From Candidatus Woesearchaeota archaeon (GTDB lineage: Archaea; Nanobdellota; Nanobdellia; Pacearchaeales; GW2011-AR1), in contig CAYHEN010000001.1 in the NCBI GenBank assembly GCA_964355745.1, positions 17-64,016 of the forward strand: a DNA stretch of 64,000 bases, in the 5' to 3' direction. Below are positions 2,028-45,668 of this stretch, piece by piece; the first letter of the stretch is position 1; every line of letters starts with the position of its first letter. Both the position numbers and the translations under genes were made by a program. Under the pieces are notes generated by a model. It had not been told where the DNA came from, searched no databases, and worked only from the letters and a program-made list of their open reading frames with translations.

Positions 2028-3127
2028 AAAAATTGATAATCTGCATTGACGGATTAGGATATGACTTAATTTCAGAAGAAAATACTCCTTTTTTATACAA
2101 TTTTGGGATTAAAAATAATTTAAGTGTTTTAAAAACCTTTTTTGCATTTACTGGTGTGGAATACAGTTTTTTTAGAGCAGATACGCCACAGGAAAATGGA
2201 ATTTGGCTGGAATTTTCAAAATCAGCAGATTCTATATTTAATAATTCTATTTTAAGATTTCTTTCATTTAACAAAAAATTAAGAACTTATCTTGGAGCAA
2301 TTCTCCAATTTTTAAATAAAAGGACTTATATCTCTGCGTTGCACAATATTCCTGCAAACAAACTAAAATATTTTGATTCCAGTGTTAAACAGGGATTGTG
2401 GAAACTGCCTTATTTTCAAAATAAGAACTTTTCTTTTTACAAATGGCCTTTTTTTATTACAAAAAATGAAAAAGAAAAAAGAAAAATAATCTTCAGATAT
2501 GAATCTGATGAAGAAAGACTTGATAGGCTGACCAAAGAGAAAAATAAAGAAATATACTATACCCAACTAATGTCTGTAGATAAAACCCTGCATAAGTTTG
2601 GCAAGAGAAGCATACAGGCAAAAAATTCTTTGTTAAGCATAGACAAAATAATGAGAAGATATGTAAATGAGTTCTTAGAAGAAAACCCTGAAGGAAGAAT
2701 TATTATCTGGGGAGACCACGGATTTGCTGATATTACAGATTACATAAATTTGGAAGATATTTTGCCTAAAAGAAAAGATTATCTCTTTTTCATTGCAGGA
2801 ACTACTGCTTCTTTTTGGTTTAGCAATGAAGAGGCTAAAAAAGAGGTTTTAGAAAGGTTATCTAAAATTAAAGAGATAAAAATACTGGATAAAAAAACTG
2901 CCAAGAAATATAAAATTCCATTCGATAAAAAATATGGGGAGATTGTATTTTATGTAGAAAAGGGAAAATACTTTTTTCCAAATTTTTATCAAAATTCAGA
3001 AGAGGAGCAATTCAAAGCCATGCACGGCTACCCAAACGATGATGAGTTAGATGGTTTTTTAATTACCAATATAAAAAAAAGAGTGAATAAATCTTTAAAA
3101 ATAAATGAGATTAGAAAAATTCTATGA
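2024..3127 (+). CDS. Alkaline-phosphatase-superfamily metalloenzyme (type I phosphodiesterase / nucleotide pyrophosphatase-like)
   Basis: Motifs ICIDGLGYD near the N-terminus and IIIWGDHGF, matching the DG...DHG metal-ligand pattern of the AP superfamily. The track ORF begins with TTG at 1961. I moved the start to ATG 2024 (MKKLIICIDG), which overlaps the upstream stop as ATGA. Confidence 0.5.
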   Translation: MKKLIICIDGLGYDLISEENTPFLYNFGIKNNLSVLKTFFAFTGVEYSFFRADTPQENGIWLEFSKSADSIFNNSILRFLSFNKKLRTYLGAILQFLNKRTYISALHNIPANKLKYFDSSVKQGLWKLPYFQNKNFSFYKWPFFITKNEKEKRKIIFRYESDEERLDRLTKEKNKEIYYTQLMSVDKTLHKFGKRSIQAKNSLLSIDKIMRRYVNEFLEENPEGRIIIWGDHGFADITDYINLEDILPKRKDYLFFIAGTTASFWFSNEEAKKEVLERLSKIKEIKILDKKTAKKYKIPFDKKYGEIVFYVEKGKYFFPNFYQNSEEEQFKAMHGYPNDDELDGFLITNIKKRVNKSLKINEIRKIL

Positions 3128-4578
3128 ATGACATTTGTTTGATTAATCCTCCTTTAGATAAAAAAACAACAAGCAAATTTCCTATGTCTGGAGTTCCTTT
3201 GGGAATTGCGTGTTTAGCAGCTTATCTAAGAGAGAGAAAAATATCCTCACAAGTCATAGATGCTCCTATAAAAGGATGGAATTTTGAAAAAACAGCCATA
3301 GAAGCCATTAAATCCGGAGCAAAGATAATAGGAGTCAGTTGCTTAACAGAAAATAGATATTCCGCCTTAAAAACATTAGAAGAAATTAAAAAAAGAGATC
3401 CTGAAATCATCACAATAATCGGGGGATTGCATGCTACTTTCTTAGACAGATTATTGCTGGAAAATTATAAGTTTATTGACATTGTTGTCAGAGGAGAGGG
3501 AGAAGAAACCTTGTACGAATTAATCAAGGCAATAAAGAACAAAAAATCCATAGATAAAATTTTAGGAATCTCCTTCAGAAAGGGGAAAGAGGTAAAAATT
3601 AATCTTCCCAGATGCTTCATTGAGAGTATAGAAAACCTTCCTCTTCCTGCTTATGATTTATTCCCTATGAAAGAATACCCTCTGCCTCCTGATGTTAAAA
3701 ATGTGAAGCAAACAACTTTAGTAACAACTTCAAGAGGGTGCCCTATGGGATGTAAGTTCTGCGAAACAACTCTGGCTTGGGGAAAAAAAGTAAGAAGTAC
3801 CTCTGCTGAAAAGTTGTTTGAACAGGTTAAACAGTTAAATAAGGAATATGGAATTGATTATATCAGATTTGCCGATGATTTATTCACTCTTAAAAAAGAA
3901 AAAGTTATGAGATTTTGTGAGTTAGTAATCAAAAATAAGCTGCCTATCAAATTCAGGATACAGGCAAGAGTGGATACTGTTGACGAAGAAATGCTAAAAA
4001 TGTTAAAAAAAGCGGGTTGTGATCTGATTGAATATGGAGCAGAAGCAGGCTCTGATAAAGTCTTAAGAGCTATTGGAAAGAATATAACAATTGAGAGAAT
4101 AAAAAGAGCTTCTGCTTTAACAAAAAGGATTGGAATTGAACTAAAATTCTTTTTAATCATAGGTTCTTTGGAAGAAATTCCAGAAGACACCTGGGAAACT
4201 TTCGAATTAATAAAAGAAACAAGACCAGACTGGATAGGCATTAATGCTCTGACGATATATCCTGGAACTTATGTTTATGACATTGCAAAAAAAGAGGGGC
4301 TAATCAGCGACGATTTATGGCTTCATTATATAAATCCCAAAACAGGAAATGCCCCATTATATACAAAGAATTATTCAGACAAAGAAATGATTTTTTTGGC
4401 TCAATTAGGGCATGTTTGGGGTTGCAGGAATTCTGACAAAAAGAAATCTTATTCCTCATTGGAAAAAATACTCGCATTTTTATTAACAGAAAATTTTGCA
4501 AGGCTACTTGTTAAGAATAAAATTACGAGAAAAATTGCTGCTAATGTAGCATGGATTTTTTCTCCTCTTTTGCCATGA
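3124..4578 (+). CDS. B12-binding-domain radical SAM protein (class B type)
   Basis: N-terminal Rossmann-like B12-binding-type domain (IIGVSCLTENR...IIGGLHAT). Then SRGCPMGCKFC, the CxxxCxxC rSAM cluster. ATGA overlap with both neighbours. Confidence 0.8.
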   Translation: MNDICLINPPLDKKTTSKFPMSGVPLGIACLAAYLRERKISSQVIDAPIKGWNFEKTAIEAIKSGAKIIGVSCLTENRYSALKTLEEIKKRDPEIITIIGGLHATFLDRLLLENYKFIDIVVRGEGEETLYELIKAIKNKKSIDKILGISFRKGKEVKINLPRCFIESIENLPLPAYDLFPMKEYPLPPDVKNVKQTTLVTTSRGCPMGCKFCETTLAWGKKVRSTSAEKLFEQVKQLNKEYGIDYIRFADDLFTLKKEKVMRFCELVIKNKLPIKFRIQARVDTVDEEMLKMLKKAGCDLIEYGAEAGSDKVLRAIGKNITIERIKRASALTKRIGIELKFFLIIGSLEEIPEDTWETFELIKETRPDWIGINALTIYPGTYVYDIAKKEGLISDDLWLHYINPKTGNAPLYTKNYSDKEMIFLAQLGHVWGCRNSDKKKSYSSLEKILAFLLTENFARLLVKNKITRKIAANVAWIFSPLLP

Positions 4579-5573
4579 GAATTTTAGTTACAGGAGCCAG
4601 TGGATTTATTGGAAGCCATCTAGCTGAAAGGCTTGTTAAGGAAAAATATGATGTTAGAGTTTTGATTAGAAAAGAAAACCCCAAAAGAAGAAAAGACTCT
4701 TTGGAATTGCTTAAAAAATTAAAAGTAGAAATTATCAAAGGAGATTTGCTGGACAAAGAATCTTTGAAACATGCGATTAAAAATACAGATGTTATTTTTC
4801 ATTTGGCTGCAATAGCAAGACCAATGGCTATTCCTGATGAAGCATATTTTAAAGTAAACGAAGGAGGAACAAGAAATTTATTGGAGGTTTGTAGGGGTAA
4901 GAAAATAAAAAAAATAATCATAATGAGCAGCGTCTCTGCTGTAGGGACGACTAAAAACGGAATAGCAGTAAACGAACAAACAGAATGCAAACCAGTAGAC
5001 GTTTATGGGTGGAGCAAGCTCGCTGAAGAAAATGTTGCTATGGAGTATTTTAACAAGTACAAAATGCCTATTGTTATATTAAGGCCCCCGATGGTTTTTG
5101 GTGAAAGAGATTTTGAAATGCTCAAATTATTCAAAATTATAAGCAAGAGATTTTTTCCGATAAGCAGCAATATTAAGTGCATGGAATTTTTATATGCCGG
5201 AAATTTAGCCGAGGCATGCTTATTAGCAATGAAAAAAGGGAAAAATGGGGAGATATATCATATTTCAAATGGAGAGCATTACAGCATTAATGAAGTAGTC
5301 CATGCGATAGAAAAGGCGGGAAATAAAAAAATTTTTCCTGTGCAATTTCCAAAATTTATTATTATCTTTGGAGGCTATGTCTTGGAAACTCTTGGGAAAA
5401 TTTTCCATTTTCATCCGCCATTTAAACATGATACAATAGATTGGATGACTAAACAACTCTGGTATACTGACATCTCGAAAGCAGAAAGAGAGTTGATGTA
5501 TAAACCAATTTTCTCGCTTCAAGAAAGCATAAAAAAGACAGCAAATTATTATAAAGAGAGGGGTTATTTATAG
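4575..5573 (+). CDS. NAD-dependent epimerase/dehydratase (extended SDR)
   Basis: MRILVTGASGFIGSHL glycine-rich NAD-binding motif and the YGWSK YxxxK catalytic motif. Start trimmed to ATG 4575, which overlaps the upstream stop (ATGA). Track end coordinate kept. Confidence 0.8.
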   Translation: MRILVTGASGFIGSHLAERLVKEKYDVRVLIRKENPKRRKDSLELLKKLKVEIIKGDLLDKESLKHAIKNTDVIFHLAAIARPMAIPDEAYFKVNEGGTRNLLEVCRGKKIKKIIIMSSVSAVGTTKNGIAVNEQTECKPVDVYGWSKLAEENVAMEYFNKYKMPIVILRPPMVFGERDFEMLKLFKIISKRFFPISSNIKCMEFLYAGNLAEACLLAMKKGKNGEIYHISNGEHYSINEVVHAIEKAGNKKIFPVQFPKFIIIFGGYVLETLGKIFHFHPPFKHDTIDWMTKQLWYTDISKAERELMYKPIFSLQESIKKTANYYKERGYL

Positions 5574-5574: not shown

Positions 5575-7005
5575 ATGAAAATAGTTTTTATAATAAAAAA
5601 ATTGAGTATTTCTGACCCTCTGGGAATTATGTGCCTATCATCTGCCCTCAAAGAAGCAGGGCATGAAACAGATTTGATATGTTTTGCAAAAGAGAATTTA
5701 TTTGAAAAACTGAGACAATTAAAACCTGATGTTGTTGCTTACAGCTTAACTACTGGTATGCATCAGGGATATATCTCTATAAATCAGGAAATTAAAAAAC
5801 ATTTTAAGGTATATTCTGTTTTTGGGGGGCCTCATCCTACTTTCTACCCTGAAATGATTAAAGAGGAAGGCGTAGATGCTGTATGCATAGGGGAAGGAGA
5901 AGAGGCTTTTGTTGAATTTGTAAACAAATTAGAAAAGAAAAAAGATGCAAGCAGGGTAAAAAACTTCTGGGTAAAAAATTCTAAGACAGGAAAGATAATA
6001 AAAAATCCATTAAGAATGTTAACTGAAAATTTGGATAAATTGCCTTTTGCTGACAGAGAATTGATTTACAAAAAAGACTCCTTTTTCGAAGGACTTGAAA
6101 TAAAAAGATTTATGACTGGCAGAGGATGTCCTTTCAAATGCACATATTGTTTTAACAGACAATATAATTCACTATATAAAGACAAAGGAAAAATTATCAG
6201 GCATAGAAGTGTGGATAATGTAATAAAAGAAATTCAGGAAATAAAAAGGAAATATCCTCTCAGAACTATTAAATTTATAGATGATACTTTTAATATAAAT
6301 TCTGTTTGGCTAAAAGAATTCTGTGAAAAATATAAAGAAAAAATAAATTTGCCATTCATATGCAATATACGTGCAGATTTAATAAATCCAGAAATGGTGC
6401 GACAATTAAGAAATGCAAATTGCATAGTCGTTTATATTGGCATTGAAACTGGAAATGAAAAAGTAAGAAGAGAAATATTAGAAAGAAATATGGGCAATGA
6501 ACAGATATTGAATGCATGCAGATTACTTAAAAAAGAAGGAATAAAGATAGTTGCACAGAACATGTTAGGGCTGCCAGGAGAAGATATAAATGGAACTTTT
6601 GAGACGATATTATTTAATTCAAAATGTAAGGTAGATTTTCCGGGATTTTCTATCTTTCAACCATATCCAGATACAGTTCTTACAGATTATGCAATAAGAA
6701 AAGGTTTTTTTGATGGGGATTTTGACAATTCTAATCCAGATTATCTGCGTAAGAGTCCATTAAAGCTTGGAATAAAAGAAAAAAGAGAGTTAGAAAACTT
6801 GAATAAATTTAGCAGCTTATTAGCAAAATTTCCTGTTTTAACTCCGATCATTCGTTTACTAATAAAATTCCCGGAAAATAAGGTATATAATTTAGTTTAT
6901 GCTTTATCTTATGGCATGTCTTTATGGAGTGTTTATTCAACTGCCTTTGGCTCTAATTTAAAACTTATAAAATCTGCTAAGAGGCTTTTAGAATACACTT
7001 TTTAA
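5575..7005 (+). CDS. B12-binding-domain radical SAM protein
   Basis: B12-binding-like N-domain (DVVAYSLTTG...VFGGPHPT...AVCIGEGEE) and GRGCPFKCTYC rSAM motif. Paralogous to 15932-17470 and 39697-41241. Confidence 0.8.
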   Translation: MKIVFIIKKLSISDPLGIMCLSSALKEAGHETDLICFAKENLFEKLRQLKPDVVAYSLTTGMHQGYISINQEIKKHFKVYSVFGGPHPTFYPEMIKEEGVDAVCIGEGEEAFVEFVNKLEKKKDASRVKNFWVKNSKTGKIIKNPLRMLTENLDKLPFADRELIYKKDSFFEGLEIKRFMTGRGCPFKCTYCFNRQYNSLYKDKGKIIRHRSVDNVIKEIQEIKRKYPLRTIKFIDDTFNINSVWLKEFCEKYKEKINLPFICNIRADLINPEMVRQLRNANCIVVYIGIETGNEKVRREILERNMGNEQILNACRLLKKEGIKIVAQNMLGLPGEDINGTFETILFNSKCKVDFPGFSIFQPYPDTVLTDYAIRKGFFDGDFDNSNPDYLRKSPLKLGIKEKRELENLNKFSSLLAKFPVLTPIIRLLIKFPENKVYNLVYALSYGMSLWSVYSTAFGSNLKLIKSAKRLLEYTF

Positions 7006-7010: not shown

Positions 7011-7538
7011 ATGGTTGACAAATTATCTGCTACTTATCTTAATAAAAATCCGATAATAAGAATTTTTAGCAGAACAAAAATAAAAATTGCTCTTATAATA
7101 GCGGATTTAAAAAAAGACGATTTAATATTGGATTTTGGATGTGGACAGGGTTGGCTGAAAAATAATCTTAAAGGACAGGGCTATAATATTATAGGATATG
7201 ACATAACTCCAGAGCACAGCGATGTGAAAGATTACACTAAAATAAAACCAGATAAAATATTTGCAATGGATGTTTTTGAGCATATCCCAAAAGAGGAAGT
7301 TAGGAAAACTATTAAAAATTTCAAAAAAATGAACCCTAATTTTGAACTCATAACTTCTATTCCCACAGAAAATTGGATTTCAAGAAAGGCGAGAAAGCTT
7401 CTGGGAAAGAGCGAGAGAGTTAAAGACCACATAACCAACCTGAAAGAGATTAAGGAAATTTTAAAAGAAGAATTGAAATTAGCAAAAAAATTTAATTTCC
7501 TGACAGTTAGCTATATCGCCAAATTTAAGAATATTTAA
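7011..7538 (+). CDS. Class I SAM-dependent methyltransferase
   Basis: ILDFGCGQGW (motif I) and DVFEHIP (post-motif II), as in Methyltransf_11/23. Confidence 0.65.
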   Translation: MVDKLSATYLNKNPIIRIFSRTKIKIALIIADLKKDDLILDFGCGQGWLKNNLKGQGYNIIGYDITPEHSDVKDYTKIKPDKIFAMDVFEHIPKEEVRKTIKNFKKMNPNFELITSIPTENWISRKARKLLGKSERVKDHITNLKEIKEILKEELKLAKKFNFLTVSYIAKFKNI

Positions 7539-9099
7539 TTTCATAAATAACAGCAACTGGCTTTTCCTGTTGGTAATATGCCTGAACAGGCATCATACTA
7601 GAATTATGTCTCTCTGGATAAGAGTACATCCAAGGTTCATGATATTCAAAGGAAGATAACATTAGGTATCTTGGTTTTATTCTTGATAAATTTCTTTGGA
7701 ATGTTGCTTCATCTGCCCCCATCTGGCCTAAGCCATAAGTGGTTCTCTCAGAATAATAAGTTATTTGTGGACGAGATTCAGAGATTATTATGTCTTGCGG
7801 ATTTGAATTTTCTTTCATCCATATTCCTGCCTGCTGTACTTCTAAATAAGAAGTCAGTTTGTTGTCTATCAAACCATTTGACCAAGCATAATTTGAAGGA
7901 GCACTACTAGTAAGGTTTATTATTAAAAGCAGTAAAAGAAAAATCATTGAAAGAGCATATATTACTTTCTTGCTTATTTTTGGATAATGCTTGTTTATTA
8001 GATTTCCTGCTTTTATTATAGGAGTTGCTGCAATTAAGAACAAAAATGGGAGAGTTGAAAGAATGTATCTGTGTTCCACCAATTGAGTTATATAACCTAA
8101 AACCAAGAATGGAACAACAATCCACAGGAAGATAAAAAATTTCTTTTGAACTTCCTCATTCTTGAAAATCTTATCCAATCCAAGAAACATGTCCTGAAAG
8201 AAAATAAATATTCCTATCACAAACAAAACAAGAATAGATTTGGTGAGAATATATGGCAAATCTTTGAAATAATCAAATATTGTTGAAACACTCCTTACAT
8301 TAGGTGTTGTGCTGGAAACTCCTGAAACTCCAAAATAGTGAGAAAGAATATCTGTAAAAATATTTCCATAGTGCGTCCAGTATAAAACAAAGAATGGGAG
8401 AAGAACTGCAAATGCCAAACCAACAGTTATCCAAAGGTGTTTATTCTTAATGAATTTGAATTTCTCCCTTGTAAATATGAAAACAAGGAAAGGAAGAGCA
8501 AACATCGCAAACTGGAATCTTGTTAACAATGAAAGAGCATAAAAAACTCCAAACAGGTATAAAAATTTATTTCCTTCTTTAAGAACATATCCTTTCCAAA
8601 AAAATAACAGAGCAAGCAGAAGAAAAAATGTTGCCGGAATATCTGTTAATATCCTTCCTGTAAAAAATAAAGAAACCCAAGAAAATAATACTCCTAAAGA
8701 CACTAAAATAGCAGTTTTTTTATCAAACATTTTAGAGATTATAAAATAAGAGAGGGCAACTAGAGATGTTGACATCAACATAACCAAAAACCTTACTCCT
8801 ATCTCCCCTAAACCAAATTTAAAAAATACAGCGCCGATTAGCGCCCATAGAAAACCTCTTCTGTAATACCAGATATCCCCTATATTCAATCCAAGCCCCC
8901 ATTCTTTAGCTGTAGAGAAATAATCTCCCTCGTCCCACCAAAGAGGCTGATGTGCAGTTTTTAAGAAAATCAAAAATCTTATTATAAATGCGGCTATTAG
9001 AAGAACAATAAATATTTTATCATAATTATCTTTTATCATAGAAGAAAGTTTTTTCTTTATAGAATTTTTTCTCTTTTCTATGTCTTCTTCCATTAACAA
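7525..9099 (-). CDS. GT-C fold membrane glycosyltransferase (PMT/ArnT-like, GT39/GT83 family)
   Basis: At least 10 predicted TM helices. N-terminal loop motif PLWWDEGDYFSTAKEW, resembling the DE/DD loop of PMT/ArnT-type lipid-linked-sugar transferases. Confidence 0.6.
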   Translation of the reverse strand: MLMEEDIEKRKNSIKKKLSSMIKDNYDKIFIVLLIAAFIIRFLIFLKTAHQPLWWDEGDYFSTAKEWGLGLNIGDIWYYRRGFLWALIGAVFFKFGLGEIGVRFLVMLMSTSLVALSYFIISKMFDKKTAILVSLGVLFSWVSLFFTGRILTDIPATFFLLLALLFFWKGYVLKEGNKFLYLFGVFYALSLLTRFQFAMFALPFLVFIFTREKFKFIKNKHLWITVGLAFAVLLPFFVLYWTHYGNIFTDILSHYFGVSGVSSTTPNVRSVSTIFDYFKDLPYILTKSILVLFVIGIFIFFQDMFLGLDKIFKNEEVQKKFFIFLWIVVPFLVLGYITQLVEHRYILSTLPFLFLIAATPIIKAGNLINKHYPKISKKVIYALSMIFLLLLLIINLTSSAPSNYAWSNGLIDNKLTSYLEVQQAGIWMKENSNPQDIIISESRPQITYYSERTTYGLGQMGADEATFQRNLSRIKPRYLMLSSFEYHEPWMYSYPERHNSSMMPVQAYYQQEKPVAVIYEIKYS

Positions 9100-9117: not shown

Positions 9118-9672
9118 TTATTTGTTTTTATTGTTTAAAATATAATGAGCTGCTTCTAACATATCTCTCGCTACAAACTCTGCTTCTTTTACTAGATTTT
9201 TTTCTTCTCGTATCAGAATATGAATTGTTCTGCATCCTGCATTTTTTCCAGTCTGTATATCTCTTAAAGAATCTCCAATCATCCAAGATTCTCTTAAATT
9301 TAGATTAAAATCTCTTGCTGCTTGTTCAAGCATTCCTGTTTTGGGTTTTCTACAATCACAATCAGATTTATATTTTTCTATTGTTCCGTTTGGATGATGC
9401 GGACAGAAGTATTCTGCATTTATGAAAATTTCATGTTCTTTTAATTTTTCATGCATTTCTTTTTTAAATCTAAAATAATCTTCTTCTGTATAATATCCTC
9501 TTGCAATTCCAGACTGATTTGTAATGATTATTAATTTGTATCCTGCTTGTCTCAGCAATTTTAATCCTTCTACAACATTAGGGAGAATTTCCAAATCTTC
9601 TATTTTGTAGACATAACCTTTATCCACATTAATAGTTCCATCTCTGTCCAAAAAAACTGCTTTATTTTCCAT
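9118..9672 (-). CDS. gmhB: D-glycero-D-manno-heptose 1,7-bisphosphate phosphatase GmhB (HAD family)
   Basis: VFLDRDGTIN, IIITNQSGIARGY, YFCPHHP and CDCRKPKTGM all match GmhB signature segments. Confidence 0.8.
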   Translation of the reverse strand: MENKAVFLDRDGTINVDKGYVYKIEDLEILPNVVEGLKLLRQAGYKLIIITNQSGIARGYYTEEDYFRFKKEMHEKLKEHEIFINAEYFCPHHPNGTIEKYKSDCDCRKPKTGMLEQAARDFNLNLRESWMIGDSLRDIQTGKNAGCRTIHILIREEKNLVKEAEFVARDMLEAAHYILNNKNK

Positions 9673-10720
9673 TTTTTAATATTTTTAAGTTTTGATAAAG
9701 GGACAAAAGAAAATTTCTATTGTTTTCTTTTATATAATGCATTTCTCTCGCATTCATTCTATGAAAAGTTTTGCAAAAACGCAAGTAATATGCGGGATTG
9801 CTTTTTTCTGGCTCGAATCCTTTGTTCCAATCCCCTCCTTCCTGAATATCATTTATAACAATTGTAAAATCTTCAATTCTCCTATTTTCCTGTCTTGCTA
9901 AATTTCTTGCCATAGATAAGGATTTTTCAAATATCATTGGAGACATTATTGCAGAACCCACTGAAATATAAATCCCTTCTTCTAATTTATTTACGCTATC
10001 AGCAAATTTCAGGAAATCTATTTCAGCGCATTTTCCTACTGAAGCACCATCGCTTAAGGGATGAGTATAAATTATATCATAACCAAATCCAGGATGGACT
10101 GTAAATGGAATTTTCATAAATACAGAATCCTGCACAGAATATTTTTTATAAGGATGATTAACTGTAATTTTGCAAGAATCTATGCCTTGTTTCATAAGTT
10201 TTTCTTTTAAGTTCTTGTTCTCATAAACTTCTCCAAGAATAGTTATCTCCTCATCATGAATCATTTCGCATACAGCTTCTCCATATCCTTTTCCTTTTTC
10301 TGCTCCTGAAATTAATGCTAAATTGATATATCGCCCTGTCTCTTCCCATAAACCAAATTGCCCTTCTTTGATATATTCTTCAACATCCTCTTCTGTCTTG
10401 CCTTGAAATGCAAACTCCCAGTCGTGAATAGAACCTGCCCCGTTTGTTGCTAGATGAGTAACAAAATCTTCTTCAATCATTCTCCTCAAAATTAAACCTA
10501 ACCCATTTTTTATCAGATGAGCTCCATAAACCATAATCACTTGTTTATCTCTTTTTCTTGCAACAATAATTTCTCTTGCTATTTTATTTATTAATTTAGA
10601 ATTTTGTGAATGGCAAAAAGGTGAATCATCTGGATTTACTGCTATTTCCTCTATAGAAGATTGATTTTTTCTTAATCCCAAGGGAAGAATTTTTAATTTG
10701 GTTCTGTCAAATAATCCCAT
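9662..10720 (-). CDS. Deoxyhypusine-synthase-like (DS family) protein
   Basis: VYGAHLIKNGLGLILRRMIEEDFVTHLATNGAGSIHDWE parallels the DHS core (..GYTSNLISSG...VDVLVTTAGGVEED). IVINDIQEGGDWNK parallels the DHS C-terminal INTAQEFDGSD segment. Recalled alignment, not a search. Confidence 0.5.
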   Translation of the reverse strand: MGLFDRTKLKILPLGLRKNQSSIEEIAVNPDDSPFCHSQNSKLINKIAREIIVARKRDKQVIMVYGAHLIKNGLGLILRRMIEEDFVTHLATNGAGSIHDWEFAFQGKTEEDVEEYIKEGQFGLWEETGRYINLALISGAEKGKGYGEAVCEMIHDEEITILGEVYENKNLKEKLMKQGIDSCKITVNHPYKKYSVQDSVFMKIPFTVHPGFGYDIIYTHPLSDGASVGKCAEIDFLKFADSVNKLEEGIYISVGSAIMSPMIFEKSLSMARNLARQENRRIEDFTIVINDIQEGGDWNKGFEPEKSNPAYYLRFCKTFHRMNAREMHYIKENNRNFLLSLYQNLKILKNGK

Positions 10721-13593: not shown

Positions 13594-13655
13594 AGTTAAA
13601 TTTAAAACTAAAAAGCCTATTTAAAATCTATTAAGATAAATTATATAAAAATGAT

Positions 13656-15171: not shown

Positions 15172-15221
15172 AAAATAATCCCATAAAACAAATTTATAAA
15201 GATTACCTAAATCAAATAGTT

Positions 15222-31411: not shown

Positions 31412-31417
31412 AATAAA

Positions 31418-32646: not shown

Positions 32647-32659
32647 AAAATTAAACAAT

Positions 32660-35986: not shown

Positions 35987-36002
35987 TCTTTATACTTTTA
36001 AT

Positions 36003-37253: not shown

Positions 37254-37255
37254 TT

Positions 37256-38203
37256 TTAATAAAAATTTTGAATTTTTTTAATTTCCTCCAAAATTTTTTC
37301 TGTATTAATATCTAAAATGCATGGTTTTTCTTTTTTGCATTCTGGTTTAAAACAAGGCATGCATTCTGGAACTGGGTCGGGTAGAATTGCTTTCCCTTGT
37401 CCATAAAAATATACTTCTTTATGAGGAGTTGGCCCAAATAAAGCAAGAATTTTTTTATTTAATGCTATTGCCAAATGCATACCTAAACTATCATTACTGA
37501 TAACTAATTTCCCTGAGTTTATCCAATCCATATAATCATGCAGATTTGTTAATATTTCATTTGGTTGTTTATCCTGTCTGCTCACTTTTAATCCTTCTTC
37601 AATTAGCTTTTCTTCAATTCTGTTCCACCTCTCAGCAGACCAAGCTTTATTCGGCCATTTCTGGCCCGCAAGAGTATTTAAACAAACATCATACTGTTCC
37701 ATTGTTCTAGGTTTATATCCTAAAACATATTTTTCCCCATTCCATTTCTTTCCAACCATCTCAAACAGAAGTTCTTGGGCTGTCTTTTCATTTTTTTGTT
37801 TCAAAATAGAATCAGAGCTTACAGCCAAAACTTCAAAAGCTCTATCATGTGCTTCTGCTTCTCCAGTGAAGGTATTAAACCGAAATCCAAATTTTTTCCA
37901 TGCTTTTATCTTGTCAGCTAATGCGCAAATCCCAGGAACTTTTTCTAAGTTTATTACACTATCGAACTCTTCTGATTCTAGTTGCAAAATTGTATTTACA
38001 TCGTAAGGCAATAATCTTTTTATAAAAGGATTATTTTCCAACAAAGGATAAGCGGATTCATCAGTTACCCATGTTACATTATCTTCTTTATATAAATGTA
38101 AAAGGGGTGTTGTCCTTAGTACATCTCCAAAACTAACTTTTCTAGAATGATTTCTCTCGAGAAATTCAGAATATCCTGCTTTTATTATTAAAACCTTTTC
38201 CAT
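37256..38203 (-). CDS. GT9 family heptosyltransferase
   Basis: MEKVLIIKAGYSE...FGDVLRTTPLLHLYKE (GT9 N-terminal signature) and GPTPHKE near the C-terminus. Confidence 0.7.
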   Translation of the reverse strand: MEKVLIIKAGYSEFLERNHSRKVSFGDVLRTTPLLHLYKEDNVTWVTDESAYPLLENNPFIKRLLPYDVNTILQLESEEFDSVINLEKVPGICALADKIKAWKKFGFRFNTFTGEAEAHDRAFEVLAVSSDSILKQKNEKTAQELLFEMVGKKWNGEKYVLGYKPRTMEQYDVCLNTLAGQKWPNKAWSAERWNRIEEKLIEEGLKVSRQDKQPNEILTNLHDYMDWINSGKLVISNDSLGMHLAIALNKKILALFGPTPHKEVYFYGQGKAILPDPVPECMPCFKPECKKEKPCILDINTEKILEEIKKIQNFY

Positions 38204-39696: not shown

Positions 39697-41241
39697 ATGA
39701 AAATAGTTTTAATTTCTACATTAACAGGTCCTTCAAACCTAGGGCTAGCAATCCTCTCTTCAGTCTTAAAAAAAGCAGGGTATGATGTAACTATGGTATT
39801 TATGGCAACAAATAAACTAACCAAAAACTCATATAATAAAAAAGAATTAAAACAATTAGAATTAATCTGTGAAGGCTGTGATTTAGTTGGGATTAGTTCA
39901 TTTACTGCAACATCCAAAAGAACAATTCAGATAATCGATTTTTTGAAGGGGAAAGTTCCAAATATGGTTTGGGGAGGAGTTCATGCCACTCTTTATCCAG
40001 AAGACTGTATTAAATATTGTGATATTGTATGTGTTGGTGAAGGAGAAGAAGCAATTTTAGATTTGGCAAAGGCAATTGAAAAAAACAAGCCAATTGATAA
40101 TATTAAAAATTTATGGATTAAAAAGGATAATAAAATAATAAGAAATCCAATTAGAAATATGATTAATGATTTGGATAAGATTCCTTTCCCAGATTTTGAG
40201 ATTGAAAAGCAATTTGTTCTAAAAAATGGGAAATTAAAGGGATTTGAAGAAAAAGATTTCGGCGGGCTGATAATATTTATGGCTGGTAGAGGTTGCCCTT
40301 ATGGATGTGACTATTGCAGCAATAATGTATTCAATAGGATATATGAGGGGAAAAGAGAATGCATAGTAAGAAAACACAGTATTGATTATGTTATTGATGT
40401 ATTGGCTTATATAAAGAACAAATTTCCAAATGTTAAAAATTTAGAGATTTCCGATGATTCATTTTCTCTCAGACCAATCAAAGAAATAAAAGAATTTGGT
40501 GAGAAATACAAAAAGAGAGTTGGTTTAAAATTCTATTGTTTAATTGACGCAAGAACTCTCACAGAAGAAAAAGCCAAGTTATTAGTTGATGCTGGATGCC
40601 AGATGGTTACAATAGGGATTCAAAGTTCAGAGAGGGTTAATAGACAAGTTTATCACAGGTATATAACAGATGAAGATGTACTTAGGAGTTCTAAAATATT
40701 AAAAAGTGTAAGTAAAAATTTAGCAACTACTTATGATATTATAACCTGTAATCCTTATGAAAAGCCGGAAGATATAATCGCTTTAATTAATCTTTTGAGA
40801 AAAATACCAAAGCCTTATCGTCTTTCAGTTAGTGCTCTTCTTTATTTTCCAGGAACCAATATAACTAATCGTGCCTTAAAAGACAAATTAATAACTGAAA
40901 AAGACTTATTCCAAGAAGATACTCCTGACAGGATGGGATTTCTTTTGAAGAGAAAAAAGAATCTGTACCTTAATTTAATTTCTACTTTAATGGGTGGGCT
41001 TGCTATAGACAATAAAGTAGGGTTAATTAATGATTCTTGGTTTGATTATCTTCTTGATGAAAAAAGGATTGAGAAGAATTTAAAAAATCCTTTTTTTGTT
41101 ATTTTGTTTATAAGATTCTTTAGAGTTCGTGATTTTGTTAGAAATAATATAGTAAAGAAAATTATTCCAGAATCATTTAAAAGAAGATATATAGAAATCA
41201 GGCTTAAAAATAAAATTCTATACAATCCAGTTCAAAACTAA
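39697..41241 (+). CDS. B12-binding-domain radical SAM protein (paralog of 15932-17470)
   Basis: GRGCPYGCDYCSN, VCVGEGEEAILDLAKAIEK. High similarity to the minus-strand paralog. Confidence 0.8.
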   Translation: MKIVLISTLTGPSNLGLAILSSVLKKAGYDVTMVFMATNKLTKNSYNKKELKQLELICEGCDLVGISSFTATSKRTIQIIDFLKGKVPNMVWGGVHATLYPEDCIKYCDIVCVGEGEEAILDLAKAIEKNKPIDNIKNLWIKKDNKIIRNPIRNMINDLDKIPFPDFEIEKQFVLKNGKLKGFEEKDFGGLIIFMAGRGCPYGCDYCSNNVFNRIYEGKRECIVRKHSIDYVIDVLAYIKNKFPNVKNLEISDDSFSLRPIKEIKEFGEKYKKRVGLKFYCLIDARTLTEEKAKLLVDAGCQMVTIGIQSSERVNRQVYHRYITDEDVLRSSKILKSVSKNLATTYDIITCNPYEKPEDIIALINLLRKIPKPYRLSVSALLYFPGTNITNRALKDKLITEKDLFQEDTPDRMGFLLKRKKNLYLNLISTLMGGLAIDNKVGLINDSWFDYLLDEKRIEKNLKNPFFVILFIRFFRVRDFVRNNIVKKIIPESFKRRYIEIRLKNKILYNPVQN

Positions 41242-41304: not shown

Positions 41305-42840
41305 TTAGGTTCTAGTTATCTTTCTTTTAAATATCCTTAATATTTCAAAATCATTTCTGTCTAAACTCTTTGTTACAAGAATTAATAAAATATACAATAG
41401 AATAAAAAAAGAACCGAGCAAAATTATTGAGATTAAATTAATAGAAAAAAATTGTCTAACATAAAGGAGTATTATAGAAGGAATTGCTACTGAAATTAAT
41501 ATCCGAATCATTTTCCTCCTTATAGGAACTATATTAATGTAATATTTAACCTGAAAGAAAAGAATTATATTAAGGAGGATGTAACTTATTGTTGTAGAAA
41601 ATGCTGCTCCATTAATTCCATATTTTGGAATAAGCAAGATATTTAATACGAAATTAAAAACAGAGAGGATTATTATATCTATTAAAGATATTTTAGATTT
41701 TCCAATAACCAATATCAGATTTTCTGAGATTTGTGTCATAGAACAGAACAAAAAACCCACTGATAAAATCTTAAGAGCCTGTTCTGCTGCCATATACTGT
41801 TCACCAAAGAGAATATTGATAAATGCACCAGAAAATAAAAACATAAGGGAAAAGAAAGGAAGGTTTATGATTAATATCCATTTTTGAATTTGCTTGCTCA
41901 ATTCTCTCATGACTTCAATCTTTTTTTCAGAAAATTCTCTAATAACCATTGGAAAGAGAATCTGCAAGAATAAAGAGGGTACAAAAACCATTAAAGAAGC
42001 GATTGGAAAGGCGGCATTATAAATACCTACATCAGAAGAACCCTTAAAGAATCCTATAACTGAAGAATCCGTATATGCAAAAAGATCGAATAGGATGTTT
42101 GAAAAAATGAGAGGTATAGAATATAAGAAAAATTTACTTTTTATCTGTTTTTTTATTTTTTCTTTTAGAATATAACTTTTAAAAATTTCTGGAAGTTTAT
42201 ATCTGCAGTAGAGATAAGCCACAAAGAAAACTGTTAAGATGCCTATCAGGTAAGAAAGGGCTACTGAATTAGCTTTTACCCCAAAGAAAATGAGCAAGAG
42301 AAGAGAAACTAATTTAATTAAGGTCTGGAAAAATTCTGATATAAAAGAATGTACTTTTATTTTTTCAAATCCCCTTATTAAACAAAGAAAAACAGAACCA
42401 ATCATGTAAAAAGGCATTGCAATGCTTAATATTTTGAGAAAAATGATTAGATTTGGCTCATGGAAGAGATTAATAGAAATAAATTCTGAGGAAAAAAATA
42501 GAATTAAACTAAAGAAAATGCTTGATAGAGTTAATATTAAAACAGAAAATCTAAAAATGTACCTAATATTATTGATTTTTTTTGTACCCCTGTAAAAAGG
42601 AATAAATCTCAAAAGCCCTTCAAAAAATCCAAAAGAAGAGATAGATACAGCAAATAAGAAAACTATAGAAGCAAGGGAGAAAGTACCATAAACTGCAGGT
42701 CCAAAATTTCTAGCAATAACTATCCTGTAAAAGTAAAAGAGAACCTTAGAAAACAGAACTGTAACAAAGATAAAAACAGAAGTCTTTGCAATTATCTTTA
42801 AAGAATCGTCTATATCTTCATCTTTTGATTTTTTATTCAT
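41305..42840 (-). CDS. Wzx-type oligosaccharide flippase (MOP superfamily)
   Basis: 511 aa, about 12-14 hydrophobic helices, polysaccharide-biosynthesis-protein topology. Sits inside the GT cluster. Confidence 0.65.
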   Translation of the reverse strand: MNKKSKDEDIDDSLKIIAKTSVFIFVTVLFSKVLFYFYRIVIARNFGPAVYGTFSLASIVFLFAVSISSFGFFEGLLRFIPFYRGTKKINNIRYIFRFSVLILTLSSIFFSLILFFSSEFISINLFHEPNLIIFLKILSIAMPFYMIGSVFLCLIRGFEKIKVHSFISEFFQTLIKLVSLLLLIFFGVKANSVALSYLIGILTVFFVAYLYCRYKLPEIFKSYILKEKIKKQIKSKFFLYSIPLIFSNILFDLFAYTDSSVIGFFKGSSDVGIYNAAFPIASLMVFVPSLFLQILFPMVIREFSEKKIEVMRELSKQIQKWILIINLPFFSLMFLFSGAFINILFGEQYMAAEQALKILSVGFLFCSMTQISENLILVIGKSKISLIDIIILSVFNFVLNILLIPKYGINGAAFSTTISYILLNIILFFQVKYYINIVPIRRKMIRILISVAIPSIILLYVRQFFSINLISIILLGSFFILLYILLILVTKSLDRNDFEILRIFKRKITRT

Positions 42841-42870: not shown

Positions 42871-43950
42871 TTAGCCCGAATATTTTAATTCATCTATAAT
42901 CTTACTTAATTTTTCAAAAAGAGGGGTTGGATTCATTTTTCTCTTAAATAAACTCTTTAAAAAATTCATGTCATAAATATAAATTTGACCGCCATATTCT
43001 CCTCCTAAAACTCTTTTCCGAGCAAAATTATCCTCTAAATCAGAAGAATTAGATTCCAAAATAGGTTTCGGTTTTCCTTTAAACAGAATTTGATTTGGAA
43101 AACTAGAACTGTCTATATAAAAATGACTATAAAGAATCATGTAATAAGCAGCTAAACATCTAAGAAAATTGTCGTCTTTTAGCCTTTTTTTTAAAATGTT
43201 AAATCTGTTTACTTCAGAAAGATTTCTTAATATCATAAAATGTGTAAGAAAATCATAAAGATTGTATGCCTTTTTCATTAAGAAATTTTTTAAAAATCTC
43301 TCATTGCCATATTTTTCTATATATTGATTAAAAACAGGATAATTTTTTAAAAAGGGGTAAACAAACCTTCTTATATGAGTAGTATCTGGACCGAGATAAT
43401 TTTCTTTGTCAAAGGAAAAATCATAATTAACTAAAAGAACCAAATCCTCTCTATATCCAAAAAAACATTCATCGCCCATAAAGAAAGGTTTAGTCATTTC
43501 AAACCAAGGAGCCCATATTTTGTATTTGAATATATTCCCTTTAGGTAAGGAGTATAATATTTCAAGAATTTTCTCTTTTTCAGAAAATAATTTTTCTAAA
43601 AATTTAGGTTCTATGTATACATCTGTGCGAGTTTTTAATACAAATTTGTCTTTAGATACCTTGTTTAATCCAGCCTCTAGAGATTTCATCTGACACCATA
43701 CGTTTCCATCTCCCCTATCTATTGGCTCTTCGCTTTCCACTACTAAAACTTTTTTACTTTTCAGAAAAGAAGAGAGTTCTGGAGTTTTTTGGACTTCTCC
43801 TTTCCATGTTGATAGGATGATTTTAGCTACGAGCCATTTCTTACGCAACGAAGTTAAATCTTCAATGGTCTTTTTGAATGAATCTAATTCTCTTATCAGC
43901 CCACAAAAAACCACATCTACTGGTTTAACTTTTTTATTTTTTAGGGTCAT
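42871..43950 (-). CDS. Hypothetical protein (359 aa), island-specific
   Basis: Long ORF. No recognisable motif. Confidence 0.4.
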   Translation of the reverse strand: MTLKNKKVKPVDVVFCGLIRELDSFKKTIEDLTSLRKKWLVAKIILSTWKGEVQKTPELSSFLKSKKVLVVESEEPIDRGDGNVWCQMKSLEAGLNKVSKDKFVLKTRTDVYIEPKFLEKLFSEKEKILEILYSLPKGNIFKYKIWAPWFEMTKPFFMGDECFFGYREDLVLLVNYDFSFDKENYLGPDTTHIRRFVYPFLKNYPVFNQYIEKYGNERFLKNFLMKKAYNLYDFLTHFMILRNLSEVNRFNILKKRLKDDNFLRCLAAYYMILYSHFYIDSSSFPNQILFKGKPKPILESNSSDLEDNFARKRVLGGEYGGQIYIYDMNFLKSLFKRKMNPTPLFEKLSKIIDELKYSG

Positions 43951-44057
43951 TTTTTATATCTGTTGATAATTATTTATAAATTTATGGATATAAAAATTTA
44001 TAAAAAAGGATTTTCAATAAAATACATCGAAAATTAAATTTTTTTATAGTCAATAAT

Positions 44058-45668
44058 ATGAAAAATTACGAAATACTGATGATTGTACCCAGATATGAAT
44101 CAACTAATAAAAAGAGGTATAATTACTTTTTTCCAATTGGTTTAGGGTATATTGTGGCAGTTTTAAAAAAGGCAGGGTATTCTGTAGATTGTTTAAATCT
44201 AAATCACGAAAAAGGAGCTTCAGAAGAAATAATAAAAAATTATTTAGATAAAAAAGAATATAACTTTGTTTGTACGGGGAATAATGCTTTAGGTTATAAA
44301 ATTACGAGAAAGATAATTAATTCTGCTAGGGCACACAAATCAAATCCAAAGATAATCCTTGGAGGACCTCTTATAACCAGTGAACCAGATTTGATATTTA
44401 AGGACCTTCGTCCTGATTTTGGGGTTATCGGAGAGGGAGAGGGAACTATTGTAGAAATTTTAGAATATTTAAAAAAAAATAAGCCATTGAAAGAAGTTAG
44501 AGGGTTAATGTATTGGGAAGATGATAAAGCCATATTAACTGAAAAAAGAGTATCATTAAATATTGATTCTATCCCTTTTCCTGATTTTGACGCTTTGGGG
44601 TTTAAAGAATATTTAGATAATTCTGCCCCAAATTATTCTTATATGCATAGTGTCTTTGATAATCCTAGAACTTACTATATTGTTGGTAGTCGTTCATGCC
44701 CCTTCCAATGCACTTTCTGCTGGCATTATGATAATAAATACAGACAAAGGTCAATTGATAATATAATGAAAGAATTAGAAGAAAGAGTAAAAAGATACAG
44801 AATTAATAGGATTTATATATTAGACGAATGTTTCTCAATAGATAAAAAGAGATTGGTTGAATTCTGTAAAAGAATTTCTAAATTAAAGAAAGAAATCTCT
44901 TGGGAATTAAGATGGATTAATTCCTCAAAAGTAAGCGATGTTGATGAAGATATTTTAAGAATGTTGAAAGAATCTGGCTGCGATATTATAAGTTATGGGT
45001 TTGAAAGTTATAGTCTGATAATTCTTAAAGGCATGAAGAAAATGATTACTCCAGAACAAATTGACAACGCTATTAAAAAAACCTATAACGCGAAAATTGC
45101 GATACAGGGTAATTTTATTTTTGGTGATATTGCAGAGACTAAAGAAACAGCATACGAAACTCTCAATTATTGGAAGGAAAATTGCGAGGGGCAACCGTAT
45201 CTAGCATTCATAATGCCATTTCCAAACAGTGAGATATACAGGTCTTGTTTAGAAAGAGGAATAATAAAAGATAAGTTAGAATTTATAAAAAATTTGGAGG
45301 GAGAATTCATAATGAAAATGACAGATAAGATGACAGATGAAGAATTCAACCAACTAAAAGAAGACATACTAAAAGCACTTGCTAAGTATAATAGAATAGT
45401 AAAACCGATATCAATCAAAAAGATAAAAGGTAAAAGATATGAATTGGAAGTAAAATGCCCTTATTGTAATCAAATAATAGAGTATAGGAATTTTTTAATT
45501 AAAAGTAAACTTTATTATCTTCTTTATGTAATGTGTAAAGATTGTTCTAAAAAATTTCATATAGGAAATAGTTTAACCGTATTTTTATATAAAAATTATG
45601 ATAAAGCAAAAAAGTTAAGAACCATGAAAGATAAAGTAGCAGGTTATATCAGGAAGATGAAACAATAA
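44058..45668 (+). CDS. B12-binding-domain radical SAM protein with C-terminal C4 zinc-ribbon
   Basis: GSRSCPFQCTFCWH, N-domain FVCTGNNALG...ILGGPLIT. C-terminus CPYCNQ...CKDCSKKF. Confidence 0.8.
   Translation: MKNYEILMIVPRYESTNKKRYNYFFPIGLGYIVAVLKKAGYSVDCLNLNHEKGASEEIIKNYLDKKEYNFVCTGNNALGYKITRKIINSARAHKSNPKIILGGPLITSEPDLIFKDLRPDFGVIGEGEGTIVEILEYLKKNKPLKEVRGLMYWEDDKAILTEKRVSLNIDSIPFPDFDALGFKEYLDNSAPNYSYMHSVFDNPRTYYIVGSRSCPFQCTFCWHYDNKYRQRSIDNIMKELEERVKRYRINRIYILDECFSIDKKRLVEFCKRISKLKKEISWELRWINSSKVSDVDEDILRMLKESGCDIISYGFESYSLIILKGMKKMITPEQIDNAIKKTYNAKIAIQGNFIFGDIAETKETAYETLNYWKENCEGQPYLAFIMPFPNSEIYRSCLERGIIKDKLEFIKNLEGEFIMKMTDKMTDEEFNQLKEDILKALAKYNRIVKPISIKKIKGKRYELEVKCPYCNQIIEYRNFLIKSKLYYLLYVMCKDCSKKFHIGNSLTVFLYKNYDKAKKLRTMKDKVAGYIRKMKQ

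Follow-up and report, generated by a model that had tools for sequence, protein, structure and literature searches.

Class B radical S-adenosylmethionine (rSAM) enzymes, such as TsrM, MgmA (the glutamine C-methylase of methyl-coenzyme M reductase, MCR), CysS, TokK and OxsB and the sugar-acting GenK, GenD1 and HpnJ, carry an N-terminal Rossmann B12-binding domain followed by a CxxxCxxC barrel and have no DxHxxG motif. The twitch or SPASM enzymes of sugar and nucleotide chemistry (DesII, BtrN, BlsE, viperin, MoaA and anSME) join the rSAM core to a C-terminal CX9-15GX4C domain, and E1-like heterodimers of thiamine diphosphate (TPP) enzymes (AviB1/AviB2, Pau11/Pau12 and EvdU5/EvdS3) have been proposed to put a pyruvate-derived acetyl branch on NDP-4-keto-sugars (PMC4753412, PMC10338323). 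We describe a locus that resembles all three, found in a 64,000-nucleotide stretch (the window; 57 sizeable open reading frames, ORFs) of contig CAYHEN010000001.1 (assembly GCA_964355745.1). We interpret it as a cell-envelope glycan locus of a DPANN archaeon made of three blocks (A, about 2-28.5 kb; B, 28.5-38.2 kb; C, 38.3-48.7 kb), in which twelve rSAMs would act as anaerobic sugar-tailoring enzymes on heptose- or hexose-based glycans, including a two-carbon branch installed by a TPP enzyme. We put the probability of this reading at roughly 0.6; domain content, synteny and conservation are observed, and from these we infer substrates and chemistry. Literature searches on such radical-SAM glycan loci found no published description of them in the library searched.

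The motif CxxxCxxC is present once, and at the expected place, in each of twelve ORFs, which is about residue 185-214 for the seven long proteins, about 34-69 for four that are short and 218 for a fusion protein; the remaining 45 ORFs examined lack it. All twelve match PF04055 and begin where the original prediction had placed them. Between positions 3124 and 45668 they account for 32% of the ORFs (12/38 over 42.5 kb), or 0.28 per kb. The glycan island extends to the left end of the 64,152-bp contig; twelve is therefore a minimum count, and the complete island may contain more. Pairwise identity among the rSAM paralogues is 20-37%, except for the pair 'c' and 'f' (50%; names as in Table 1), and this rules out recent tandem duplication as the source of the rSAM density.

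Seven of the enzymes ('a' to 'g') had been assigned an N-terminal domain of the B12-binding type, and a check set beforehand bears this out: all seven exceed the gathering scores of PF02310 (B12-binding, 45-84 bits against 32.1) and PF04055 (Radical_SAM, 57-98 bits against 29.5). None of the seven B12 domains contains DxHxxG, as had already been noted, and six share a GGxHxT motif. With the low mutual identity given above, the seven appear to comprise several distinct class B subfamilies without names. A profile of the seven matches AprD4, MgmA, OxsB, TsrM, TokK and CysS in the PDB; the nearest solved rSAM core by sequence is that of AprD4, an enzyme whose name is that of a 1,2-diol dehydratase and not of a methyltransferase. 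Class B also includes enzymes that do not methylate: OxsB appears in the PDB matches by its structure, and the top NCBIfam scores include BchE and HpnJ. The AlphaFold2 model of 'c' (pLDDT 88, pTM 0.86) superposes best on TsrM, MgmA, OxsB, AprD4 and CysS, at 12-16% identity to any solved structure, and the class B fold that it predicts is sound. Most likely, the seven would alkylate (C-methylate) sugar carbons, or rearrange them, with the help of cobalamin that the cell probably needs to import. Enzyme 'g' has two C-terminal CxxC pairs (467/470 and 493/496) that are missing from the other six and look like a zinc-ribbon or rubredoxin-like module.

The other five rSAMs ('1' to '5') were originally assigned SPASM or twitch domains, and this assignment holds. 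The C-terminal domains of all five contain CX9-15GX4C and four exceed the PF13186 gathering score of 21.5, with '3' below it; the match of '1' to PF04055 is marginal, at 29.6 bits against 29.5. The seven-cysteine SPASM pattern (CX9-15GX4C ... CX2CX5CX3C ... C) is found in none of the five. Only two to three further cysteines follow CX9-15GX4C, which makes one auxiliary cluster of the twitch type more likely than two in each of them. The PDB matches of the twitch profile include SkfB, BtrN, PqqE, SuiB and MoaA, and BtrN, MoaA and viperin are among the top sequence matches of these enzymes.

Block A contains a core that is conserved among DPANN contigs (compared loci are designated L###, and homologues of rSAM '4', window 32660-34303, P####). 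There are more than 700 homologues of 'c'; the best 120 are 71-90% identical (orthologues 68-91%), the few with names come mostly from Nanoarchaeota or Pacearchaeota, and the level of identity is about that of the ribosomal proteins when compared with the relative in L005. We counted 26 metagenome loci, each 15 kb or longer, with an orthologue of 'c'. Around it stand GT2 'a' (26/26), GT4 'b' (25/26) and the PMT_2 glycosyltransferase (22/26), with QueC, GT9-NUDIX and NTP_transferase-GT4 in 16 loci each and the nucleoside deoxyribosyltransferase-family gene, which travels with GT9-NUDIX, in 15. These loci have one to seven rSAMs in about 20 kb (median 3.5, 0.16 per kb), and three genome contexts have 7, 6 and 8 rSAMs within 21.5 kb. 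Eight of the twelve rSAMs in the window have orthologues on other DPANN contigs, mostly at 50% identity or more. The island had been taken for a singular oddity, and this view has to be abandoned: orthologous rSAM-rich islands, with up to 8 rSAMs in 21.5 kb, lie on many related DPANN contigs, and the window is the upper end of a common pattern and no isolated case. In most loci long enough to show neighbours, the rSAMs of the relatives adjoin glycosyltransferase or sugar-nucleotide genes, in keeping with the glycan setting proposed at first.

Gene-by-gene comparison gives the same picture. The orthologues in L053 and L055 are 79% and 64% identical for '1', 84% and 71% for 'd', and 59-77% for NTP_transferase-GT4. 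Those of '2' (52-63%) adjoin a MetW-like methyltransferase in L005, L053, L054 and L055, the counterpart of the methyltransferase at 7011 adjoins PMT_2 in L053, L054 and 8 of the 26 metagenome loci, and homologues of the phosphodiesterase at 1961 adjoin the B12-rSAM core in L054, L055 and L088. In L120, block B comes straight after the block A 'c' core.

Within block B, about 9 kb (genes 29318-38203) belong to a module common to many anaerobic bacteria, with the recurrent order [GT9], rSAM '5', TPP alpha, TPP beta, rSAM '4', [NUDIX], rSAM '3'. In the window the '5' gene is followed by the TPP alpha gene and then by a fusion of the beta subunit to '4'; this E1 alpha/beta-type enzyme, with its rSAM-fused beta subunit, had been missed in the original prediction. 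The rSAM part of '4' shares 58-86% identity with unfused proteins about 367 aa long that come from many bacterial and archaeal phyla, and it has at least 5955 database relatives. A scan of one genome per species returned 44 loci, all in metagenome-assembled genomes, mostly of Omnitrophota but also of Nitrospirota, Planctomycetota, Desulfobacterota, Fibrobacter, Elusimicrobia, Bdellovibrionota, Patescibacteria/Saccharibacteria, Woesearchaeota and Pacearchaeota. Their neighbours include a 256-aa GT2 (28 loci), an epimerase (20), a B12-rSAM (15), a DegT aminotransferase (12), HldE (11) and a SIS/GmhA-like gene (9; a SIS gene is also present in L054); HldE, the SIS/GmhA-like gene and the epimerase adjoin the module in bacteria, where its surroundings are heptose, O-antigen-like loci that include WecG, Bac_transf and Wzy. 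The core rSAM is followed by '3' in 16 loci from both bacteria and archaea, GT9 adjoins the module in 15, and for the majority of longer loci '5', which is 33% identical to '4', lies upstream of the TPP pair.

The TPP pair occurs in three forms: full-length E1 alpha/beta, Transketolase_N with a pyrimidine-binding domain, and a short archaeal form. In the window the alpha subunit (215 aa) has an intact GDG...NN motif at residue 132, with the E1-alpha of pyruvate dehydrogenase (PDH) as its top PDB match, and the beta subunit (about 175 aa) is without the transketolase C-terminal domain. The E1 beta-rSAM fusion is found in the window and in P0002-P0011; other fusions of the core rSAM are E1 alpha + E1 beta + rSAM in P0012 (802 aa) and GT2 + rSAM in P0028 (629 aa). 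The '4' family has nine invariant cysteines, namely three of the SAM cluster, four C-terminal ones, Cys267, and Cys389 in a KHCSD motif. In the AlphaFold2 model of the fusion (pLDDT 83), the closest fold is DesII, a TDP-sugar rSAM, followed by SkfB, SuiB, PDH E1-beta, viperin, anSME, BlsE and MoaA, of which BlsE, viperin and MoaA act on nucleosides or nucleotides. The sequence similarity of '4' alone to known twitch enzymes is marginal (E about 1e-4).

The physical contact implied by the E1 beta-rSAM and E1 alpha-E1 beta-rSAM fusions, together with the constant flanking of the TPP pair by two rSAMs and the lack of any reductase partner encoded in the island, could also mean that the TPP enzyme is an electron source: electrons of hydroxyethyl-TPP would reach the SAM cluster by way of the auxiliary cluster and reduce it, a built-in, PFOR-like activation for cells that have no flavodoxin or ferredoxin reductases. 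We think this very unlikely, since Fe-S cluster reduction by E1-type enzymes is without precedent, the module is also found in large-genome bacteria (Sedimentisphaerales, Nitrospirota, Desulfobacterota) that are not expected to need a reductant system of their own, and the sugar-branching precedent accounts for the pairing more simply.

The genes that surround the rSAMs indicate a glycan pathway. Between 3124 and 45668 there are seven firm glycosyltransferases (PMT_2, GT9-NUDIX, GT2 'a', NTP_transferase-GT4, GT4 'b', GT4 'c' and GT9 'b'); eight had been counted originally, and a WavE-like protein is below its gathering score. Similarly, the five predicted SAM methyltransferases exist, although only four, one of them a fragment, fall within this range and the fifth, FkbM, is slightly beyond it. 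One Wzx and two short-chain dehydrogenase/reductase (SDR) epimerase/dehydratases are present, as proposed. A link to heptose is given by GmhB, which is over curated cut-offs, by the HldE-like protein at 407 bits (cut-off 521), both of whose single-domain models are also slightly under cut-off, and by the two GT9 genes. The second adenylyltransferase-like protein, at 32137, is 35% identical to the C-terminus of HldE. Between the HldE and GmhB genes, in the slot expected for GmhA, is a GSU2086-family protein that may substitute for a heptose-synthesis step; in the bacterial loci L023 and L027 the family is a neighbour of the cytidylyltransferase and of HldE, and a PDB search found no relatives of it.

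In 15-16 of the 26 related loci, QueC, the nucleoside 2-deoxyribosyltransferase-family gene and GT9-NUDIX (12205-15935 in the window) occur together inside the core of glycan genes. For this reason QueC is probably not an incidental housekeeping neighbour, and it may amidate a sugar acid or serve some nucleoside-linked step. These nucleoside-related families (QueC, nucleoside 2-deoxyribosyltransferase and NUDIX) are also what might be expected if the product were not a structural glycan but a secreted small molecule, an aminoglycoside-, orthosomycin- or nucleoside-like oligosaccharide acting against, or on, a host. The nearest characterized relatives come from antibiotic pathways (AprD4, OxsB, TsrM, BtrN, DesII, BlsE), and E1-like sugar-branching pairs are known to date just from avilamycin, everninomicin and paulomycin. 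Wzx and the GT-C transferase indicate instead lipid-linked assembly outside the membrane, however, and the window shows no gene for a sugar aminotransferase, a cyclitol synthase, an exporter or resistance. The core is about as conserved as ribosomal proteins across many related contigs, and it holds a fixed chromosomal place beside SecDF and ribosomal genes. A secreted product is thus quite unlikely.

The envelope-glycan reading suggests the following sequence of events. NDP-sugars, including one of the ADP-heptose type, would be activated and moved onto polyprenyl phosphate by GT2 or GT4 enzymes (GT2 'a' being a candidate polyprenyl-phosphate sugar synthase) and then tailored; Wzx would flip the tailored glycan, and the GT-C enzyme would transfer it outside the cell. 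In block B, a twitch rSAM could, in the manner of DesII, BtrN, anSME and AprD4, turn a heptose (or hexose) nucleotide into a keto-sugar by oxidation or dehydration. The E1-like TPP enzyme could then add a pyruvate-derived two-carbon unit to the keto-sugar, as in the pairs AviB1/AviB2, Pau11/Pau12 and EvdU5/EvdS3, after which the other block B rSAMs would finish the product and GT9 would transfer it. A bolder version, which we regard as tentative and on balance doubtful, is that the module makes an undescribed heptose-derived residue, two-carbon-branched or chain-extended, by radical oxidation or dehydration and TPP carboligation; that it has spread horizontally between anaerobic bacteria and DPANN; and that, with the lineage-wide B12-rSAM core, these tiny symbionts need imported cobalamin for envelope synthesis.

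Several observations weigh against an envelope glycan tailored in this way. In an NCBIfam scan none of the twelve rSAMs reaches the curated cut-off of any family; no function can therefore be transferred, and the original idea of many C-methyl sugars stays conjectural. The best cases among the B12-rSAMs are ApyD (204 bits against 750) and BchE (195 against 481), also the top scores of 'a' at about 200 bits, and all seven fail the class B families BchE, HpnJ, HpnR, PhpK, TsrM, MCR glutamine C-methyltransferase, KedN5, ApyD, BzaD, ladderane B12-rSAM and AprD4. A SIS domain, as in the sedoheptulose-7-phosphate isomerase GmhA, is in no ORF of the window, and neither Wzy nor an initiating phosphoglycosyltransferase nor AglB is among these ORFs, with the contig stopping at the left edge of the island. 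SPASM/twitch rSAMs are mostly peptide maturases. The two-carbon branch would follow from analogy, and in 14 bacterial loci the alpha subunit is Transketolase_N-like, not E1, so the transferred unit may differ between versions of the module. Finally, the archaeal GrsA/B and Gmm are B12-rSAMs and Gms is a SPASM/twitch rSAM, with clustered genes (PMC11214058, PMC11186832).

The last point is central to the most serious rival, in which scavenged archaeal membrane lipids, or the polyprenyl carrier, are what the rSAMs methylate, cyclize or cross-link, and the glycosyltransferases add glycolipid head groups. Besides this clustering of lipid-modifying rSAMs in archaeal genomes, 'a' to 'g' partly match hopanoid (HpnJ, HpnR) and ladderane-lipid models, and Epim1 scores highest in NCBIfam with the hopanoid-associated model of an HpnA-like sugar epimerase, at 164 bits where the cut-off is 368. 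The hopanoid and ladderane scores are, however, far under cut-off (for the ladderane model TIGR04072, at most 122 bits against 360), and similarity to Tes (7tol) is confined to the generic rSAM core, covering just residues 35-159 of the SPASM profile (E = 1e-13) and ranking below SkfB and BtrN; none of the twelve comes near the ladderane model or Tes, so that a refuting outcome set beforehand did not come about. Moreover, Pacearchaeota are reported to be without Tes homologues (PMC8941075), the bacterial module is in heptose, O-antigen-like loci, and the fusion partners of the rSAMs are GT2 and the TPP enzyme, not lipid enzymes. We therefore consider lipid tailoring unlikely.

It is hardly to be expected that, as happens with sactipeptides and proteusins, the B12 and SPASM/twitch rSAMs mature a ribosomal peptide or the S-layer protein. 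[quoted passage not shown] Intergenic gaps are no longer than about 230 bp, no candidate precursor ORF adjoins any rSAM, no gene for a protease, leader-peptide recognition (RRE) or an ABC exporter accompanies them, and the neighbourhoods consist consistently of sugar genes. A RiPP cluster is ruled out, there being no space for precursor ORFs. A phosphonate pathway of the Fom3/PhpK type was rejected because no phosphoenolpyruvate (PEP) mutase is among the window ORFs, and an anti-phage defence system was rejected because PADLOC matched just viperin-like rSAM cores and QueC, without any system.

Block C, with Wzx, the WavE-like protein, 'g', GDPD and FkbM, is a fixed flank beside a variable region. 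There are more than 1300 homologues of 'g', and the best 120 are 48-75% identical. Two close relatives, L051 and L052, whose 'g' has 71% identity, share the gene order Wzx, WavE-like, 'g', unknown, GDPD, FkbM, unknown, RuBisCO ... SecDF; the WavE-like protein is 80-82% identical in both, and the genes in 45670..48663 are syntenic at 58-90% identity. Left of Wzx the genes are quite different. In L051 (139-7243; GCA_040961665.1, JBFOMY010000053.1) they are APS_kinase, a methyltransferase, a PPDK_N/PEP-utilizer protein, NTP_transferase and Peptidase_C26/GATase, a set that presumably resembles the O-methyl-phosphoramidate capsule cassette of Campylobacter (Cj1415-Cj1418); inositol-phosphatase and sulfotransferase genes come after it. 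In L052 they are DegT, sugar C-methyltransferase, GT4 and methyltransferase genes. A fixed flank with variable genes left of Wzx is how O-antigen and capsule loci behave. L052 also has the same arrangement of the outlying GHMP kinase-NTP_transferase and GT2 'b'.

The archaeal origin that had been proposed is borne out by the markers on the contig (DUF655-S13-S4-S11-RpoD, SecDF, 5S rRNA and tRNAs). Relatives that bear organism names are mostly Nanoarchaeota, Pacearchaeota or Woesearchaeota, and from these two lines of evidence we conclude that the host is an ultra-small DPANN archaeon. Proteins identical to those of the window are found on contigs from the Hainich groundwater observatory (well H43, 0.1-um fraction). 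The glycan locus is at a fixed chromosomal site adjoining SecDF and ribosomal genes, and G+C is even across the window (27-34%). The even G+C and the conserved synteny with relatives rule out horizontal acquisition of the whole island; block B is still common to bacteria.

Table 1. Genes of the three blocks and the right flank. Scores are in bits; cut-offs are the curated values of the models.
Feature	Coordinates	Strand	Evidence and remarks
Type I phosphodiesterase/phosphotransferase-like	1961..3127	+	PF01663 59; left edge of block A
B12-rSAM 'a', class B	3124..4578	+	PF02310 83.9, PF04055 83.8; CPMGCKFC at residue 206
SDR NDP-sugar epimerase/dehydratase (Epim1)	4551..5573	+	PF01370 142.8
B12-rSAM 'b'	5575..7005	+	PF04055 93.3, PF02310 74.3; top NCBIfam HpnJ 128 vs 578
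SAM methyltransferase	7011..7538	+	Methyltransf_23
GT-C glycosyltransferase (PMT_2/ArnT-like)	7525..9099	-	PF13231 42.8; 11 hydrophobic segments
GmhB, heptose 1,7-bisphosphate 7-phosphatase	9118..9672	-	TIGR00213 187 (cut-off 150), NF006506 185 (cut-off 178)
GSU2086-family protein	9662..10720	-	NF052581 318 vs cut-off 250
HldE-like heptose-7-P kinase/heptose-1-P adenylyltransferase	10724..12133	-	PfkB + CTP_transf_like; NF008454 407 vs cut-off 521
GT9 (heptosyltransferase family) fused to NUDIX hydrolase	12205..13593	-	PF01075 81.6, PF00293 79.7
Nucleoside 2-deoxyribosyltransferase-family protein	13656..14075	+	PF05014 63.9
GT2 'a'	14067..14990	-	PF00535
QueC-family PP-loop enzyme	15222..15935	+	PF06508 167; TIGR00364 144.5 vs cut-off 150.3
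B12-rSAM 'c'	15932..17470	-	PF04055 61.1, PF02310 50; the island's most conserved gene
Sugar-1-P nucleotidyltransferase fused to GT4	17588..19462	+	PF00483 111, PF00534 79.7
rSAM/twitch-like SPASM '1'	19465..20586	-	PF13186 43.3, PF04055 29.6
SDR, 4,6-dehydratase-like (Epim2)	20693..21736	+	PF01370 141; dTDP-glucose 4,6-dehydratase model 143 vs 365
B12-rSAM 'd'	21770..23131	+	PF04055 97.5, PF02310 61.5
GT4 'b'	23128..24312	+	PF00534 122
Methyltransferase fragment, C-terminal half	24384..24884	+	Methyltransf_11 positions 54-93 of 95 only; 166 aa, TTG start
SAM methyltransferase	24885..25646	-	Methyltransf_11
GT4 'c'	25652..26722	-	Pfam
rSAM/twitch-like SPASM '2'	26796..27860	+	PF04055 80.7, PF13186 55.9
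MetW-like SAM methyltransferase	27857..28480	-	Pfam
Polysaccharide deacetylase family	28555..29325	+	PF01522 39.2
rSAM '3', short twitch-like tail, module member	29318..30259	-	PF04055 47.4; SPASM 18.8, below gathering score
Soluble protein	30353..31411	+	no Pfam, NCBIfam or PADLOC match
HD-domain phosphohydrolase	31418..32095	+	PF01966
Second heptose-1-P adenylyltransferase-like, cytidylyltransferase family	32137..32646	+	TIGR02199 rfaE_dom_II 117 vs cut-off 181
TPP-enzyme beta (pyrimidine-binding) + rSAM/twitch '4' fusion	32660..34303	-	PF02779 36.6, PF04055 63.2, PF13186 33.9
TPP-enzyme alpha (diphosphate-binding), short E1-alpha-like	34303..34950	-	PF00676 74.3
rSAM/twitch '5', paralogue of '4'	34934..35986	-	PF04055 70.4, PF13186 41.7
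B12-rSAM 'e'	36003..37253	-	PF04055 66.9, PF02310 45.1
GT9 'b', module member	37256..38203	-	PF01075 57.1
Protein with one hydrophobic segment	38279..39490	-	no family match; 38% homologue in L005
B12-rSAM 'f', 50% paralogue of 'c'	39697..41241	+	PF04055 62.7, PF02310 57.9
Wzx-type flippase	41305..42840	-	PF01943, PF13440; 12 hydrophobic segments
WavE-like, possible glycosyltransferase	42871..43950	-	PF07507 22.5, below gathering score 27
B12-rSAM 'g', C-terminal 2xCxxC	44058..45668	+	PF04055 56.9, PF02310 52.5
Right-hand conserved genes	45670..48663		unknown 45670+, GDPD 46410+, FkbM methyltransferase 47150-, unknown 47890-
GHMP kinase fused to NTP_transferase	50009..51811	+	outlying glycan gene, beyond RuBisCO
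GT2 'b'	52699..53679	+	outlying glycan gene

Other features of the window lie at the margins of these blocks or between their genes. Positions 1-3124 hold an unknown 423-aa ORF (756-2027) and the phosphodiesterase, with homologues in the related islands L055, L059, L062 and L088. The methyltransferase fragment at 24384 is probably a truncated gene; ORFs matching it are present in 5 of 26 related loci (e.g. L059 and L086). Two soluble proteins of the right flank, 45670-46425 (+) and 47890-48663 (-), are paralogues (30% identity) and show 81-90% conservation in L051 and L052; in these two loci a weak NTP_transferase annotation falls on the second one's counterpart. Next to them, a homologue of the RuBisCO large subunit, a candidate form III-like enzyme (48645-49889, -), lies in the island's right flank and keeps its position in L051 and L052 (79-80% identity). 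Further to the right, Rfam predicts a fourth tRNA of 89 nt (57242-57330, -) that is absent from the ARAGORN output and is possibly an intron-containing archaeal tRNA, and a lone 5S rRNA gene is found at 58018-58132.

The surface glycans of DPANN, Omnitrophota and the Candidate Phyla Radiation (CPR) are chemically uncharted and are a likely interface with hosts. Here a large share of a very small genome is devoted to oxygen-sensitive radical chemistry of the envelope, including seven enzymes predicted to depend on cobalamin. As related archaea share such islands and many anaerobic bacteria carry the module, radical-SAM sugar chemistry appears to be widespread and unstudied. The '4' family, strongly conserved (58-86% across two domains of life) and always paired with a TPP enzyme, offers a well-defined target for enzymology. 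If our interpretation is correct, the locus would encode an anaerobic route to branched or C-alkylated sugars, and dependence on vitamin B12 would be a metabolic reason for a symbiotic lifestyle.

The locus differs from each of the systems that it resembles. From the characterized class B enzymes the seven of the window are set apart in that they reach no curated NCBIfam cut-off, with 'c' at the low identity to solved structures given above. Compared with the DesII-type enzymes, rSAM '4' has its own invariant Cys267 and KHCSD (Cys389) and, unlike any of them, is fused to or adjoins a TPP enzyme. The TPP enzyme shares with AviB1/AviB2, Pau11/Pau12 and EvdU5/EvdS3 the two-subunit E1 alpha/beta-type organization, an intact TPP motif and a place in a sugar-tailoring locus, but its subunits are much shorter, an rSAM is fused to the beta one, and two rSAMs always flank the pair; moreover, the locus is one for a surface glycan and not an actinomycete antibiotic cluster, and some bacterial versions of the module have a Transketolase_N-type alpha subunit. 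GmhB, the HldE-like bifunctional protein, two GT9 enzymes and SDR epimerases recall the bacterial ADP-heptose/GT9 pathway of the lipopolysaccharide (LPS) core (GmhA, HldE, GmhB, HldD, WaaC/WaaF), whereas the host here is an archaeon without LPS, a GSU2086-family protein is present instead of GmhA (SIS), and one GT9 is fused to NUDIX. Both rSAM architectures and their clustering are shared with the archaeal rSAMs that modify glycerol dialkyl glycerol tetraethers (GDGTs; Tes, GrsA/GrsB, Gms, Gmm). The context argues against membership in that group: the window has no lipid-synthesis context, sugar genes surround the rSAMs in most loci long enough, and the similarity to Tes is that of the generic core. 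We conclude that the kind of locus, glycan genes with tailoring enzymes of known superfamilies, is already known, and that the combination of seven class B and five twitch rSAMs with an rSAM-fused TPP enzyme, conserved over many DPANN contigs and partly common to bacteria, is undescribed.

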